Sequence record: OR941417.1
DNA from: Escherichia phage RCF
Length of the DNA: 38,501 bases
Reading direction: 5' to 3' (one strand)
Part shown: in pieces, positions 1,040 to 38,501 of the stretch
How the letters are laid out: every line of letters begins with the position of its first letter
Position numbering within the stretch: position 1 is the first letter of the stretch
Position numbers and translations under genes: made by a program
Notes under the pieces: generated by a model
The model's database searches: none
Seen by the model: only the letters and a program-made list of their open reading frames with translations
What the model was told of the DNA's origin: nothing

Positions 1040-3694
1040 ATGAACATCATCGAAAACATCGAAAAGAATGACTTCTCCGAAATCGAACTGGCTGCTATCC
1101 CGTTCAACACACTGGCAGACCACTACGGTAGCGCATTGGCTCGTGAACAACTGGCTTTAGAGCATGAGTCTTATGAGCTAGGCGAGCGCCGCTTCCTCAA
1201 GATGCTTGAGCGTCAAGCGAAAGCTGGTGAGATTGCAGACAACGCAGCCGCTAAGCCATTACTCGCTACGCTTCTCCCTAAGTTAACCGCACGTATCGTT
1301 GAGTGGCTCGAAGAGTACGCATCGAAGAAAGGCCGCAAGCCCGTAGCCTATGCACCACTCCAGCTACTCAAGCCGGAGGCGTCCGCGTTTATCACACTCA
1401 AGGTCATCCTTGCGTCACTGACCAGCACGAACATGACAACCATTCAGGCCGCTGCTGGTATGCTGGGGAAGGCCATTGAGGACGAGGCACGTTTCGGGCG
1501 CATCCGTGACCTCGAAGCGAAGCACTTCAAGAAGCACGTTGAGGAACAACTCAACAAGCGCCACGGGCAAGTCTACAAGAAAGCCTTTATGCAGGTGGTT
1601 GAGGCCGATATGATTGGTCGTGGGCTGCTGGGAGGCGAGGCGTGGTCTAGCTGGGACAAGGAAACCACGATGCACGTAGGGATTCGCCTGATTGAAATGC
1701 TGATTGAATCCACGGGTCTGGTGGAACTACAGCGCCACAACGCAGGCAACGCAGGCTCTGACCATGAGGCACTGCAACTGGCCCAAGAGTACGTCGATGT
1801 GTTAGCGAAGCGTGCAGGAGCACTGGCGGGTATCTCTCCGATGTTCCAGCCGTGTGTCGTACCGCCGAAACCTTGGGTATCAATCACAGGTGGCGGCTAT
1901 TGGGCTAACGGTCGCAGACCTTTGGCACTCGTTCGCACTCACTCTAAGAAGGGACTGATGCGCTACGAAGACGTTTACATGCCAGAAGTCTACAAGGCTG
2001 TGAACATCGCACAGAACACCGCATGGAAAATCAACAAGAAAGTTCTTGCCGTTGTCAATGAAATTGTTAACTGGAAGAATTGCCCGGTCGCAGATATTCC
2101 ATCGCTGGAGCGCCAAGAGTTACCGCCCAAGCCGGACGACATTGACACCAACGAGGCAGCACTCAAGGAGTGGAAGAAAGCCGCCGCTGGTATCTACCGC
2201 TTGGACAAGGCACGAGTGTCTCGCCGTATCAGCTTAGAGTTCATGCTGGAGCAGGCCAACAAGTTTGCAAACAAGAAAGCAATCTGGTTCCCTTACAACA
2301 TGGACTGGCGCGGTCGTGTGTACGCTGTGCCGATGTTCAACCCACAAGGCAACGACATGACGAAAGGTCTGCTGACCCTCGCTAAAGGCAAGCCAATCGG
2401 TGAGGAAGGGTTCTACTGGCTGAAAATCCACGGTGCGAACTGTGCGGGTGTCGATAAGGTTCCTTTCCCTGAGCGCATCGCGTTCATTGAGAAGCACGTA
2501 GACGACATTCTGGCTTGCGCTAAAGACCCAATCAACAACACTTGGTGGGCCGAGCAGGATTCACCATTCTGTTTCCTCGCGTTCTGCTTCGAGTATGCAG
2601 GCGTTGCGCACCACGGTCTGAGCTACAATTGCTCTCTGCCGCTGGCGTTCGATGGGTCTTGCTCCGGTATCCAGCACTTCTCCGCGATGCTCCGCGATGA
2701 GGTAGGCGGTCGCGCGGTTAACCTGCTGCCAAGCGAAACCGTGCAGGACATTTACGGAATCGTTGCACAGAAAGTAAACGAGATTCTCAAACAGGATGCA
2801 ATCAACGGCACACCTAACGAGATGATTACCGTGACCGACAAGGACACCGGGGAAATCTCAGAGAAGCTCAAGCTGGGAACCTCAACGCTGGCGCAACAGT
2901 GGCTGGCATATGGTGTAACCCGTAGCGTAACTAAACGTTCGGTCATGACGCTGGCTTACGGTTCCAAGGAGTTCGGCTTTCGTCAACAGGTACTGGACGA
3001 CACCATTCAGCCTGCGATTGACAGCGGTAAGGGCTTGATGTTCACTCAACCTAACCAAGCGGCTGGCTATATGGCTAAGCTGATTTGGGACGCGGTGAGC
3101 GTGACCGTAGTCGCAGCGGTTGAGGCGATGAACTGGCTCAAGTCTGCCGCCAAGCTGCTGGCTGCTGAGGTCAAGGACAAGAAGACCAAGGAGATTCTGC
3201 GCCACCGTTGCGCGGTTCACTGGACTACGCCGGACGGCTTCCCGGTATGGCAGGAATACCGCAAGCCACTCCAGAAGCGTCTCGATATGATTTTCTTGGG
3301 GCAATTCCGTCTGCAACCGACGATTAATACCCTCAAGGATTCAGGCATTGACGCACACAAGCAGGAGTCTGGCATCGCGCCTAACTTTGTTCACTCACAG
3401 GACGGTAGCCACCTCCGCATGACAGTCGTTTATGCTCACGAGAAGTATGGCATTGAGTCCTTTGCGCTCATCCATGACAGCTTTGGGACTATCCCGGCAG
3501 ACGCTGGTAAGCTCTTTAAGGCTGTGCGTGAGACGATGGTTATCACCTATGAGAACAACGATGTGCTGGCAGACTTCTATGACCAGTTTGCAGACCAGCT
3601 ACACGAGACCCAACTGGACAAGATGCCTCCGCTTCCGAAGAAAGGAAACCTGAACCTGCAAGACATTCTCAAGTCTGACTTTGCCTTTGCATAA
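1040..3694 (+). CDS. 1: Single-subunit phage RNA polymerase (T3-type), 884 aa
   Basis: 884-aa ORF collinear with T7 RNAP, preceded by a GAGGT Shine-Dalgarno. Its cognate T3-type promoters recur through the genome. Confidence 0.98.
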   Translation: MNIIENIEKNDFSEIELAAIPFNTLADHYGSALAREQLALEHESYELGERRFLKMLERQAKAGEIADNAAAKPLLATLLPKLTARIVEWLEEYASKKGRKPVAYAPLQLLKPEASAFITLKVILASLTSTNMTTIQAAAGMLGKAIEDEARFGRIRDLEAKHFKKHVEEQLNKRHGQVYKKAFMQVVEADMIGRGLLGGEAWSSWDKETTMHVGIRLIEMLIESTGLVELQRHNAGNAGSDHEALQLAQEYVDVLAKRAGALAGISPMFQPCVVPPKPWVSITGGGYWANGRRPLALVRTHSKKGLMRYEDVYMPEVYKAVNIAQNTAWKINKKVLAVVNEIVNWKNCPVADIPSLERQELPPKPDDIDTNEAALKEWKKAAAGIYRLDKARVSRRISLEFMLEQANKFANKKAIWFPYNMDWRGRVYAVPMFNPQGNDMTKGLLTLAKGKPIGEEGFYWLKIHGANCAGVDKVPFPERIAFIEKHVDDILACAKDPINNTWWAEQDSPFCFLAFCFEYAGVAHHGLSYNCSLPLAFDGSCSGIQHFSAMLRDEVGGRAVNLLPSETVQDIYGIVAQKVNEILKQDAINGTPNEMITVTDKDTGEISEKLKLGTSTLAQQWLAYGVTRSVTKRSVMTLAYGSKEFGFRQQVLDDTIQPAIDSGKGLMFTQPNQAAGYMAKLIWDAVSVTVVAAVEAMNWLKSAAKLLAAEVKDKKTKEILRHRCAVHWTTPDGFPVWQEYRKPLQKRLDMIFLGQFRLQPTINTLKDSGIDAHKQESGIAPNFVHSQDGSHLRMTVVYAHEKYGIESFALIHDSFGTIPADAGKLFKAVRETMVITYENNDVLADFYDQFADQLHETQLDKMPPLPKKGNLNLQDILKSDFAFA

Positions 3695-36495: not shown

Positions 36496-36525
36496 TTGAC
36501 TTTAAGTAACCCTTAAGGCTATTAT
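36496..36525 (+). promoter_or_regulatory. A1: Host sigma70 early promoter A1-like (TTGACT, ~18 nt spacer, TATTAT)
   Basis: -35/-10 hexamers read from the sequence; location at the genome left end matches T7 A1. Confidence 0.55.
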
Positions 36526-36624: not shown

Positions 36625-36654
36625 TTGACAACATGAAGTAACATGCAGTAAGAT
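36625..36654 (+). promoter_or_regulatory. A2: Host sigma70 early promoter A2 (TTGACA ACATGAAGTAACATGCAG TAAGAT)
   Basis: Near-identical to the T7 A2 promoter sequence as I recall it. Confidence 0.8.
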
Positions 36655-36734: not shown

Positions 36735-36763
36735 TTGACAACATGAAGTAAGCACGGTACGAT
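36735..36763 (+). promoter_or_regulatory. A3: Host sigma70 early promoter A3 (TTGACA ACATGAAGTAAGCACGG TACGAT)
   Basis: Near-identical to the T7 A3 promoter; followed by GTACCACAT. Confidence 0.8.
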
Positions 36764-36887
36764 GTACCACATTGAAACGACAGTGAGGCGGGACACTGAA
36801 AGCCGCTAGGGTCTAACGAAACCAGACCGACACGCTCTTTAACAATCTGGATAATAGCTCTTGAGTGTACCGATGTATAAGCGAATA

Positions 36888-36925
36888 ACTCAAGGTCGCA
36901 CTAAAAGCGTGGCCTTTATGATATT
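36888..36925 (+). promoter_or_regulatory. RNase III-type processing hairpin upstream of gene 0.3 (ACTCAAGGTCGCACTAAAAGCGTGGCCTTTATGATATTC)
   Basis: Same motif family; position corresponds to T7 R0.3. Confidence 0.7.
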
Positions 36926-36958
36926 CACTTAACACGAACTAACATGAGGTAACACCAA

Positions 36959-37417
36959 ATGATTTTCACTAAAGAGCCTGCTAACGTCTTCTATGTACTG
37001 GTGTCAGCTTTCCGTTCAAACCTTGACGATGAGGTGAACATGAGCCGCCACCGCCACATGGTAAGTACTTTACGTGCCGCACCGGGTCTTTATGGCTCCG
37101 TTGAGTCAACCGATTTGACCGGGTGCTATCGTGAGGCAATCGCAAGCGCACCAACTGAGGAAAAAACGGTTCGTGTACGCTGCAAGGACAAGGCGCAGGC
37201 GCTCAATGTTGCACGCTTAGCTTGCAATGAGTGGGAGCAAGATTGCGTACTGGTATACAAATCACAGACTCACACGGCTGGTCTGGTGTACGCTAAAGGT
37301 ATCGACGGGTATAAGGCTGAACGCCTGCCGGGTAGCTTCCAAGAGGTTCCTAAAGGCGCACCACTGAAAGGGTGCTTTACGATTGACGAGTTCGGTCGCC
37401 GCTGGCAAGTACAGTAA
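36959..37417 (+). CDS. 0.3: S-adenosyl-L-methionine hydrolase/lyase (anti-restriction protein)
   Basis: 152 aa starting MIFTKEPANVFYVLVSAFRSNL..., which I recognise as the T3 SAMase; first gene after host promoters A1-A3 and the R0.3 hairpin. This is T3-type, not the T7 Ocr protein. Confidence 0.92.
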   Translation: MIFTKEPANVFYVLVSAFRSNLDDEVNMSRHRHMVSTLRAAPGLYGSVESTDLTGCYREAIASAPTEEKTVRVRCKDKAQALNVARLACNEWEQDCVLVYKSQTHTAGLVYAKGIDGYKAERLPGSFQEVPKGAPLKGCFTIDEFGRRWQVQ

Positions 37418-37423
37418 GTGATA

Positions 37424-37460
37424 GACTCAAGGTCGCACTGTATGTGTGGCCTTTATGATT
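37424..37460 (+). promoter_or_regulatory. RNase III-type processing hairpin after gene 0.3 (GACTCAAGGTCGCACTGTATGTGTGGCCTTTATGATTATC)
   Basis: Same motif family; near-duplicate of the site at 36888. Confidence 0.7.
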
Positions 37461-37489
37461 ATCACTTAGCACGTTATAGGACTAACACC

Positions 37490-37690
37490 ATGAGTAAACT
37501 ACTGGCAACATCTAAAATAGAAGGCCAATGCACTGTAACACTGCGCGAGTATTACCACGGGTCAATGGGAAGCACCTACGTTGTGCGATACGGTAAACAG
37601 GTCACACATTGGGTAAATCCGATTTTAGCACAAGAGGATTATCAAGCCTGTGTGATACACCAAGCAACATGTGCGGGCTGGAATGATTGA
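37490..37690 (+). CDS. Early small protein (66 aa), function unknown
   Basis: ORF following an RNase III-type hairpin; true start ATG 37490 (MSKLLATSKIEGQC...). Position corresponds to the T7/T3 0.4-0.6 block. Confidence 0.6.
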   Translation: MSKLLATSKIEGQCTVTLREYYHGSMGSTYVVRYGKQVTHWVNPILAQEDYQACVIHQATCAGWND

Positions 37691-37709
37691 CATAACAGGA
37701 GGATTAGCA

Positions 37710-37868
37710 ATGGCTATACTTATCACTATCGCACTCTTTGCGGTCGCTGGCTGGTACTCTGAGTCACGCAAGGCCGCTCGCTATCATCGCAAGATGGTTA
37801 AACTCATGGAACACTTGGACGAAGAAGGGCGAGGCCGCGAGGCTATCGAACTGGTGAAACACGCATGA
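37710..37868 (+). CDS. Early small membrane protein (52 aa), function unknown
   Basis: ATG 37710 after AGGAGG; N-terminal hydrophobic helix (MAILITIALFAVAGWY). Track start 37671 is inside the upstream gene. Confidence 0.55.
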   Translation: MAILITIALFAVAGWYSESRKAARYHRKMVKLMEHLDEEGRGREAIELVKHA

Positions 37869-38062
37869 TGATTCTCTTTATCGCACTGGTCTATCTGTGC
37901 ATCGCAATGTACTTTATGCGAGACTTTAAGCGCGGTCTGGCAATACACAAGGCAACGCTGAGTTACTTTAAGTGGGGATTCATCCCACGGTTTACGGTTC
38001 GTGAACGTAACGGACGCTTTAAGGCCAACAAGGTAGGAGTATTCTACATTGCTACGCACTAA
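37865..38062 (+). CDS. Early small protein (65 aa), function unknown
   Basis: ATG overlaps the stop of the previous ORF (ATGA coupling); hydrophobic N-terminus, basic C-terminus. Confidence 0.45.
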   Translation: MMILFIALVYLCIAMYFMRDFKRGLAIHKATLSYFKWGFIPRFTVRERNGRFKANKVGVFYIATH

Positions 38063-38093
38063 CTCAAAGCACGTAAAGATTGCACTGTATGCT

Positions 38094-38219
38094 ATGGCTT
38101 ATGGTGCATCGAAACGTAAGGTCAAACGCATCTTAACGAGACACCGCAAGATGACCGCACGACAGGCTGCAAGCGCTGTCAAATGGGCTGAATTTACTCT
38201 TTACTCTTCTTACAGATAA
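38094..38219 (+). CDS. Possible early basic micro-protein (41 aa, MAYGASKRKVKRILTRHRKMTARQAASAVKWAEFTLYSSYR)
   Basis: Not in the ORF track. ORF between the previous early gene and 0.7; no convincing Shine-Dalgarno. Speculative. Confidence 0.25.
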   Translation: MAYGASKRKVKRILTRHRKMTARQAASAVKWAEFTLYSSYR

Positions 38220-38233
38220 CAGGACACTGAACG

Positions 38234-38501
38234 ATGACTTTCACCGAAGCACAAGCCGCACTCGAAGCTATCCGCAACCTACCGATTGAGCGCCTGAACG
38301 AACGCCAGCCCATGCTGGTGGCTCTTGCGGCTGCTATCGTGAACGCTGAGACTCAAGACGGGCAACTGACGCAGGCCAAGGGTAATTGGGGTCTGGAGTC
38401 GATGGACTACTGGCAGACACTGGCGGAGCGTATGCGTGATGTTGGTTTCGTCAAGCTGGGCAACGGTCACTTTAGCGCAGCCTATGAACACGCACTGCTA
38501 C
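38234..38501 (+). CDS. 0.7: Gene 0.7 protein kinase, N-terminal portion (3' end truncated by window end; continues in frame at window start)
   Basis: ATG 38234; MTFTEAQAALEAIRNLPIERLNERQPMLVALAAAIVNAETQDGQLTQAKGNWGLESMDYWQTLAERM... runs to the window end, and the last 127 nt are identical to nt 1..127. Confidence 0.85.
   Translation, partial: MTFTEAQAALEAIRNLPIERLNERQPMLVALAAAIVNAETQDGQLTQAKGNWGLESMDYWQTLAERMRDVGFVKLGNGHFSAAYEHALL
38375..38501 (+). repeat. Window wrap-around: these 127 nt are identical to nt 1..127 (circular permutation or assembly overlap, not a biological repeat)
   Basis: Direct comparison of the first and last 127 nt of the window; the overlap falls inside gene 0.7. Confidence 0.95.

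Follow-up and report, generated by a model that had tools for sequence, protein, structure and literature searches.

A block of four small T3-group genes between the SAM lyase and kinase genes of Escherichia phage RCF

The genome of Escherichia phage RCF (sequence record OR941417.1, 38,501 nucleotides, here called the window) contains a block of four short open reading frames (ORFs) between the genes for a SAM (S-adenosylmethionine) lyase and a protein kinase. The four ORFs are genuine protein-coding genes under purifying selection. An earlier note on this DNA had described the block as small early ORFs of unknown function. It consists of genes 0.45, 0.6 and 0.65 of the T3/phiYeO3-12/phiSG-JL2 group, together with a 52-codon gene listed in GenBank as hypothetical. 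Annotations of these genes in related phages go back some 20 years, and they are already known hypotheticals with no function attached. On balance, we favour the view that the block is a T3-group early accessory cassette, whose products bind host components and are individually dispensable. The four genes are as follows.

37490–37690, plus strand: ORF1, gene 0.45; 66 residues, isoelectric point (pI) 6.8; ATG start, with a weak Shine-Dalgarno (SD) sequence, TAGGA, 8 nt upstream.
37710–37868, plus strand: ORF2; 52 residues, pI 9.3; ATG start, SD GGAGG 7 nt upstream.
37865–38062, plus strand: ORF3, T3 gene 0.6; 65 residues, pI 10.5, net charge +8.7; ATG start.
38049–38219, plus strand: ORF4, T3 gene 0.65; 56 residues, pI 11.4, net charge +12.7; TTG start, SD AGGAG 9 nt upstream.

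Each ORF has a full-length match in the PHROG collection (expect values, E, from 1e-30 to 5e-45), and all four PHROGs are of unknown function. ORF1 encodes a protein that shows 100% identity with the gp0.45 of Salmonella phage phiSG-JL2 and matches phrog_6500 (E 4.7e-45), with homologues in 154 phage records. ORF2 matches phrog_25811 (E 2e-37; 45 phage records). The product of ORF3 is 91% identical to T3 gp0.6 and matches phrog_2385; homologues of gp0.6 are found in 573 phage records and form 117 clusters at 90% identity, nearly all of 64–68 residues. Finally, the product of ORF4 is 96% identical to T3 gp0.65 and matches phrog_10380 (E 1e-34; 176 phage records).

Codon alignments were built from 59 related loci taken from IMG/VR and GenBank, and the pooled ratio of non-synonymous to synonymous polymorphism (pN/pS) in the annotated frame was compared with the values obtained when these alignments were read in the +1 and +2 frames. 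The SAM lyase gene served as a control.

ORF1: in frame 0.14; +1 frame 1.20; +2 frame 2.06.
ORF2: in frame 0.53; +1 frame 0.88; +2 frame 1.19.
ORF3: in frame 0.30; +1 frame 1.21; +2 frame 2.14.
ORF4: in frame 0.45; +1 frame 1.04; +2 frame 1.06.
SAM lyase: in frame 0.39; +1 frame 1.33; +2 frame 1.46.

These values bear on the question of whether one or more of the ORFs might be chance frames or functionless relics. All four are shorter than 70 codons, the selection signal for ORF2 is modest, and T3 itself has neither ORF1 nor ORF2, all of which would fit such a view. However, lengths and starts are kept across hundreds of genomes, and the in-frame pN/pS values of ORF1, ORF3 and ORF4 lie far under the off-frame values. 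Furthermore, a homologue of ORF2 in Escherichia phages Bas103 and Bas104, which is only 35% identical, is of conserved length and retains both the membrane helix and an EGRG-x-EA motif. The idea of chance frames is largely refuted by the present data, and we regard it as very improbable. An antisense ORF of 91 residues that lies over gene 0.6 (37784–38059, minus strand) was rejected as spurious, there being no support for it from conservation.

The earlier note listed ORFs of 66, 52, 65 and possibly 41 residues. The first three lengths stand. The fourth needs correction: the 41-residue form, starting at the ATG at 38094, is here replaced by the 56-residue form starting at the TTG at 38049. The T3 record annotates a UUG start, the homologues in Przondovirus have ATG at the equivalent position (MSQRTD...), residues 1–16 are conserved, and residues 6–17 form helix 1 of the predicted fold. 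ORF4 is therefore 56 residues long. It has the features of its family, being a basic protein of 55–56 residues with the pattern MAYGAS...KRILT.HRKMTARQAA.AVKWA, which starts inside the 3' end of gene 0.6 with UUG or AUG. AlphaFold2 (AF2) predicts a three-helix bundle with a mean pLDDT (predicted local distance difference test) of 86.7, with helices at residues 6–17, 22–33 and 37–55. A three-helix bundle with a charge of +12.7 would most likely bind a polyanion, either nucleic acid or an acidic host protein.

It may be asked whether ORF4 is an independent gene, or the C-terminal part of a frameshift fusion, "0.6B". The records of phiSG-JL2 and phiYeO3-12 annotate a joined 0.6B coding sequence, a fusion has been proposed for T7 too, and gp0.65 is found directly after, and overlapping, T3-type 0.6 in every sampled locus. 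Against this, ORF4 has its own AGGAG SD sequence and its own start codon (TTG in RCF as in T3, and ATG in the Przondovirus relatives), while a fusion would require a +1 frame change and no slippery sequence is evident at 38040–38062. The alternative module for the same position, the C-terminal frame of T7 0.6B, also has its own ATG and follows either type of gene 0.6, and the 56-residue protein is predicted to fold alone as a complete three-helix bundle. The fusion annotation is thus less likely than independent initiation of gene 0.65, and we consider it distinctly improbable that ORF4 exists only as part of a fusion. A minor 0.6B fusion product may be made in addition to the independent gp0.65.

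The product of ORF3, gp0.6, has the features of its family: about 65 residues, an N-terminal membrane helix, the pattern PRFTVR..NGRFKANKVG.FY.ATH, and a position in the early region just upstream of gene 0.65 or the kinase gene. The earlier note had pointed out hydrophobic N-termini in two of the ORFs, and these were indeed found in ORF2 (residues 1–15) and ORF3 (residues 1–18). In gp0.6 the membrane anchor is variable, while the basic C-terminal domain is nearly invariant and ends ...PRFTVRERNGRFKANKVGVFYIATH. Across 34 variants, which come from phages infecting Klebsiella, Escherichia, Yersinia, Pectobacterium and Erwinia, there is almost no variation in the final 25 or so residues, and this tail is still conserved in loci that have no downstream gene overlapping the 3' end. 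The positive charges are on the C-terminal side of the membrane helix, and by the positive-inside rule gp0.6 is predicted to have its N-terminus outside and its C-terminus inside. A variable helix joined to an invariant tail argues for a conserved cytoplasmic partner. We therefore propose, as a working model, that the helix would anchor gp0.6 in the inner membrane so that the basic C-terminal domain, of about 45 residues, faces the cytoplasm. There its most likely partner would be a target conserved among enterobacteria and located on the cytoplasmic side of the membrane. Whether this target is some envelope-associated host component we regard as an evenly balanced question, and it is rather doubtful that it is the elongasome or MreB specifically.

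Two variants of this gene deserve mention. The gp0.6A of phiSG-JL2 (L001, 2105–2344) is 79 residues long, with a 14-residue tandem duplication (FKRGLAIHKATLSY occurs twice) just after the membrane helix, and the linker evidently tolerates insertion. In IMGVR_UViG_2595698761 (L025, 1239–1585), genes 0.6 and 0.65 are each found by tblastn in two pieces; they are likely to be frameshifted, either as pseudogenes or through sequencing errors.

The product of ORF1, gp0.45, has the 66 residues and the pattern (MSKLLATSK...VRYGKQ...AQEDYQ.CV.HQ.TCAGWND) typical of its family, and its gene lies after the RNase III site downstream of gene 0.3. The conserved motifs are Y-x-V-x-Y-G and C-x2-H-x3-C-A-G. 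The AF2 model (pLDDT 81.8) is of a soluble protein with four β-strands and a C-terminal helix. The conserved Cys, His and Cys residues are on one helix, and possibly form a metal site. A profile search with the family retrieved 41 distant clusters, of 60–88 residues. Relatives lie at the left end of Bordetella phage BB8, Pseudomonas phage phiNV3 and Klebsiella phage vB_Kp_H01, and the family, of about 65 residues, occurs at the early left end of several lineages of Autographiviridae. The fold bears some resemblance to the DNA-binding domains of AP2, integrase arm-binding and WGR type, which also consist of a β-sheet plus a helix. However, sequence identity to these is only 8–13%, gp0.45 is neutral whereas they are basic, it has no Pfam match, and the fold is too simple for such a match to imply function. 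In our view gp0.45 probably acts by binding a host factor stoichiometrically; among the four, it is the best candidate for an anti-defence protein.

A longer form of ORF1, of 90 residues and initiated at the GTG at 37418, was considered and rejected: the 24-codon extension (37418–37489) is not conserved and overlaps the RNase III hairpin described below. Several database entries give gp0.45 similarly over-long starts (80–93 residues).

ORF2 encodes a small protein that matches its family over the full length, with a membrane helix followed by the motifs GW.SESRK and EGRGREAIE. Its N-terminal membrane helix (hydropathy 2.35) has a positive flank and is followed by a charged helix, and by the positive-inside rule the protein is predicted to be an anchor with its N-terminus out and its C-terminus in. 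It is annotated as hypothetical in Klebsiella phage Patroon and Citrobacter phages SH1 and SH2, and there are dozens of GenBank records in all; the phiSG-JL2 record carries no annotation for it, and the gene is absent from T3. ORF2 is probably a second membrane-anchored modulator, or else a superinfection-exclusion factor.

The setting of the block is that of a T3-like phage. The 1.6 kb around it is 92–97% identical in DNA sequence to many Teetrevirus genomes, from phages of Klebsiella, Shigella, Serratia, Salmonella, Citrobacter and Pantoea, the top match being Klebsiella phage 066044 (97.4%). The window thus represents a Teetrevirus (T3-like) genome. Positions 1–127 are identical to 38375–38501, an assembly overlap of 127 bases, which shows that the contig is circularly permuted and that the unit genome is 38,374 bp long. 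The features around the block are as follows.

36496–36525, 36625–36654 and 36735–36763, plus strand: three sigma-70 promoter-like sites, each with 10 of 12 consensus matches and TTGACA or TTGACT −35 boxes.
36870–36935: hairpin R0.3, at an annotated RNase III site position (−21.8 kcal/mol, z −3.6).
36959–37417, plus strand: gene 0.3, SAM lyase, the upstream neighbour; 152 residues, PF23780 (E 2.5e-42), phrog_2226.
37415–37468, plus strand: RNase III-type hairpin, R0.45 of phiSG-JL2 or R0.5 of T3 (−25.6 kcal/mol, z −3.9).
38234–38501, plus strand: 5' part of gene 0.7, protein kinase, the downstream neighbour; phrog_2828 (E 5e-151).

The flanking genes are as the earlier note had them, a SAM-degrading enzyme at 36959–37417 (PF23780) and the gp0.7 kinase from 38234. 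The SAM lyase is 98–99% identical to gp0.3 of T3 and phiSG-JL2. Because positions 1–127 repeat 38375–38501, the kinase gene resumes at window position 128 and runs to 969, giving a product of 369 residues on the circularised sequence. The RNA polymerase gene follows at 1040–3694.

The earlier note also placed the block in the class I region, which the RNA polymerase of the host transcribes, and the signals in the window agree with this. The layout of the three sigma-70 sites, at 36496, 36625 and 36735, matches that of A1, A2 and A3, the host promoters annotated in T3 and phiSG-JL2. There are 12 T3-type phage promoters in the window, but the scan found none between 35464 and, across the join, 3707; and no terminator-like site was seen in the block region. 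With promoters A1–A3 upstream, and neither phage promoter nor terminator before the RNA polymerase gene, the block lies uninterrupted between the A promoters and gene 1, which places it in class I. If it behaves as in T7 and T3, the host RNA polymerase would transcribe the four ORFs in the first minutes of infection.

The records of phiSG-JL2 and T3 annotate a stem-loop at the position of the 37415–37468 hairpin; a search of Rfam with the region gave no match. Cutting at this hairpin is predicted to generate the 5' end of a processed mRNA, which would carry the four ORFs together with the gp0.7 kinase. The start of ORF3 overlaps the stop of ORF2 as ATGA, while ORF4 begins 14 nt before the end of ORF3 and has its SD sequence inside that gene; this arrangement suggests coupled translation. 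The hairpins at 36870–36935 and 37415–37468 are near-repeats of one another (CTCAAGGTCGCAC...GTGGCCTTTATGAT). One third of the megablast matches are broken into two pieces at the hairpin region, because some relatives (GP-5, SH1, CT02) have an extra gene of about 50 codons between the SAM lyase gene and 0.45.

In the 59 loci, all the genes that lie between those for anti-restriction and the kinase were then classified. There are at least 30 different architectures, which can be described as a mosaic of seven slots.

Slot 1: SAM lyase or Ocr.
Slot 2: a gp0.4-family gene, optional.
Slot 3: gp0.45, optional.
Slot 4: ORF2 or T7 gp0.5, optional, never both.
Slot 5: T3-type 0.6 or T7-type 0.6A, exactly one per locus.
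Slot 6: gp0.65, a diverged gp0.65, the C-terminal module of T7 0.6B, a gp0.4-family gene, or empty.
Slot 7: the kinase.

The rule for slot 5, that each locus has either T3-type 0.6 or T7 0.6A and not both, holds in all 59 loci, including the 21 that were retrieved with unrelated queries. The other genes come and go: as well as the absence of ORF1 and ORF2 from T3, ORF4 is missing from CT02 and KLB12, and KLB12 also has no ORF1. No gp0.4-family gene was found in the RCF window by the slot classification.

The C-terminal frame of the "possible gene 0.6B" of T7 has its own ATG (MTERTDGLKKGY...), as seen in L003 (T7; 1373–1573), in L013 and L038 (1570–1863) and in L026–L030. In one IMG/VR phage, this module follows a T3-type 0.6, starting at the start position of gp0.65. 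With its own ATG, and a position after T3-type 0.6, the T7 frame behaves as an independent gene of the 0.65 slot. The T7 copy of 0.6B itself differs from its relatives by a frameshift near the 3' end (KDKRGRRGIDERKRLK... compared with KEQERAAWHRRKEKVKAKKLAALE...). In a Pectobacterium phage that resembles PP74, the stretch from gene 0.6 to that for RNA polymerase has just one match to the kinase family, an ORF of 71 residues (L024, 1769–1984), which aligns to the kinase profile over its final 63 residues. To judge from this alignment, it would be either a kinase remnant or a stand-alone C-terminal domain.

What, then, do the four proteins do? The early region of T7-like phages has been a repeated source of host inhibitors and counter-defence proteins, among them Ocr, SAM lyase, gp0.4, gp0.6 and gp0.7. 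The mosaic slots, the patchy presence of the genes, and the neighbouring SAM lyase/Ocr and kinase genes together point to a possible host-inhibition or anti-defence role. The four products would be small host-directed effectors, rather than replication or assembly factors. T7 gp0.4 and gp0.6 are reported to be inhibitors of FtsZ and MreB (PMC5624674, PMC6965359), and T7 genes 0.3–0.7 came out as "highly dispensable" in the genome-wide knockout map made by PhageMaP (PMC11482910).

The most concrete hypothesis concerns T3-type gp0.6 and T7 gp0.6A. The two occupy the same slot, upstream of the slot for 0.65 or the 0.6B tail and of the kinase gene, and they are of similar size. Because of this slot equivalence and their mutual exclusivity, T3-type gp0.6 may be seen as a membrane-tethered functional counterpart of T7 gp0.6. 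They have in common a C-terminal tail, K-x-N-K-[IV]-G-x-x-Y-x-x-T-H (BLASTP E 0.003; equalled in 17 of 5000 shuffles), and a stop-codon junction, ACGCACTAA/TGA. The similarity is limited to the last 13–20 residues, and T7 gp0.6A has no N-terminal membrane helix.

Several observations weigh against the preferred reading. No experiment, homology or fold match links any of the products to a target. The tail common to the two proteins is encoded where the next gene has its ribosome-binding site and start, and so may reflect that overlap, or a recombination junction, rather than a shared function; a profile comparison of T3 gp0.6 with T7 gp0.6A shows no homology (probability 0.4%). The selection signal for ORF2 is weak, coming from nine sequences with little divergence. 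Early transcription, RNase III cutting and membrane topology all enter the argument as predictions.

Searches with the products themselves gave little further guidance. For the four genes, no function is reported in the searchable literature, where searches by gene name and accession returned genome announcements only. Sequence searches of Pfam, NCBIfam, PADLOC and the PDB with the four products gave nothing useful; in particular, they returned no characterised homologue. The earlier note had named, as a case that would refute its proposal, that all the ORFs have close characterised homologues with unrelated housekeeping roles. An assignment to PF26807, precomputed for one relative of 95 residues, was not reproduced. 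The structure prediction proposed in the same note did yield folds for gp0.45 and gp0.65, but these are generic and point to no function, and fold searches with the predicted structures returned only generic small-fold matches.

A more specific role can also be considered. One or more of the products, foremost gp0.45, ORF2 and gp0.65, could be counter-defence proteins directed against specific host immune systems, like the neighbouring SAM lyase or Ocr and the gp0.7 kinase, rather than general takeover factors. These three are patchily distributed among near-identical phages (154, 45 and 176 records, compared with 573 for gp0.6), the slots are swapped as a mosaic beside the SAM lyase/Ocr slot, and members of the gp0.45 family occur in phages of Enterobacteria, Bordetella and Pseudomonas. 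Mosaic swapping of this kind is typical of accessory regions carrying counter-defence genes (Silas et al., bioRxiv 10.1101/2023.04.06.535777). On the other hand, the supplements of a published screen of accessory genes did not contain the four sequences. Scans of Pfam, NCBIfam, PHROG annotations, the PDB and BFVD identified no anti-defence family, these being general scans and not a dedicated search with anti-defence profiles; the PADLOC models cover defence systems and not anti-defence proteins. We regard a counter-defence role as a minority possibility that is worth keeping in view.

Alternatively, ORF2 and gp0.6 might exclude superinfecting phages, stopping them at the inner membrane, or might control DNA entry or the envelope, rather than inhibit the growth machinery of the host. 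Both are small, predicted to be single-pass proteins with the N-terminus out and the C-terminus in, and would be expressed straight after infection. However, neither has homology to known exclusion proteins. Such proteins usually work from the periplasmic side, whereas the invariant part of gp0.6 is predicted to be cytoplasmic; what varies in gp0.6 is the membrane helix. Exclusion or entry control is therefore quite unlikely. Of similar standing, though a little less unlikely, is the boldest form of our proposal, in which gp0.6 would represent a novel kind of inhibitor tethered to the membrane, whose invariant cytoplasmic domain binds a conserved envelope or cytoskeletal target of enterobacteria, and which is interchangeable in function with T7 gp0.6 though of unrelated fold. 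In this form, gp0.45 would be a new family of metal-binding inhibitors of the C-x2-H-x3-C type, acting early on host factors or defences in several lineages of Autographiviridae, and each slot would correspond to one host process.

Returning to the block as a cassette of dispensable host-binding proteins, we hypothesise that T3-type 0.6 and T7-type 0.6A are alternatives for one slot, as ORF2 and T7 0.5 are for another, and that the invariant cytoplasmic tail of gp0.6 would be the contact region for a host partner. The T3-type versions are present in hundreds of sequenced phages, many of them phages of Klebsiella, E. coli, Yersinia and Salmonella that were isolated as candidate therapeutics. 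The targets of these products, once known, would help to account for the takeover of the host and perhaps also for host range. The block adds no new kind of element: its identification is correct but ordinary, and its genes are candidates of modest interest for work on host takeover and anti-defence.

It remains to compare the block with the known systems. The earlier note remarked that the ORFs do not look like the T7 proteins, and this is borne out by profile comparison: T7 gp0.4, gp0.5 and gp0.6A/B belong to PHROGs other than those of the four ORFs, and the hhalign probability is below 2% for every pairing tried. The individual candidates for homology were rejected on this basis, namely gp0.45 with gp0.4 (0.6%), gp0.6 with gp0.5 (0.1%) and gp0.6 with T7 gp0.6A (a different PHROG, 0.4%). 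By eye, gp0.65 and the C-terminal module of T7 0.6B look alike (TLYAANRRIVRTWR compared with AMAYGAS..KRILTRHR), but hhalign gives 0.5% and 2324 of 5000 shuffles are equal. Homologues of the body of T7 gp0.6A (52–55% identity) occur in phi92-like and related phages of 145–150 kb and in Aeromonas phages, which are myoviruses; among the matches listed for T3-type gp0.6, all are T7-like podovirus genomes of 39–41 kb.

T7 gp0.4, the FtsZ inhibitor (PHROGs 7202, 5058 and 25044, with a Y-G-L-T ... L-x-x-x-Y core), is likewise a small early protein from the same region. In one locus like that of a Pectobacterium phage (L022, 896–1072), a gp0.4-family gene lies directly after 0.6, in the slot of gp0.65. 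A motif, A-M-x-Y-G-A-S, is common to gp0.65 and some members of the gp0.4 family (L022; L051 and L033), but it is not significant. The possibility that gp0.65 is a diverged gp0.4 was rejected (hhalign 1.9%, no PHROG cross-hits, shuffle p of about 0.02), and is retained as a lead only.

T7 gp0.5, a hydrophobic protein of 47 residues, shares its slot with ORF2, between 0.45 or 0.4 and 0.6, and the two never occur together. Each is a small membrane protein, but there is no homology between them (phrog_16572; hhalign probability 1.1%), and gp0.5 is hydrophobic throughout whereas ORF2 has one helix and a charged tail that would be cytoplasmic.

The agreement with the T3 group is of a different order. 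In T3, phiYeO3-12, phiSG-JL2 and other members of Teetrevirus, and in Przondovirus, the genes are the same (PHROGs 6500, 25811, 2385 and 10380), with 91–100% amino acid identity. Compared with T3, phiYeO3-12 and phiSG-JL2, nothing of substance differs: the gene order, the overlaps, the promoters and the RNase III sites are all the same.

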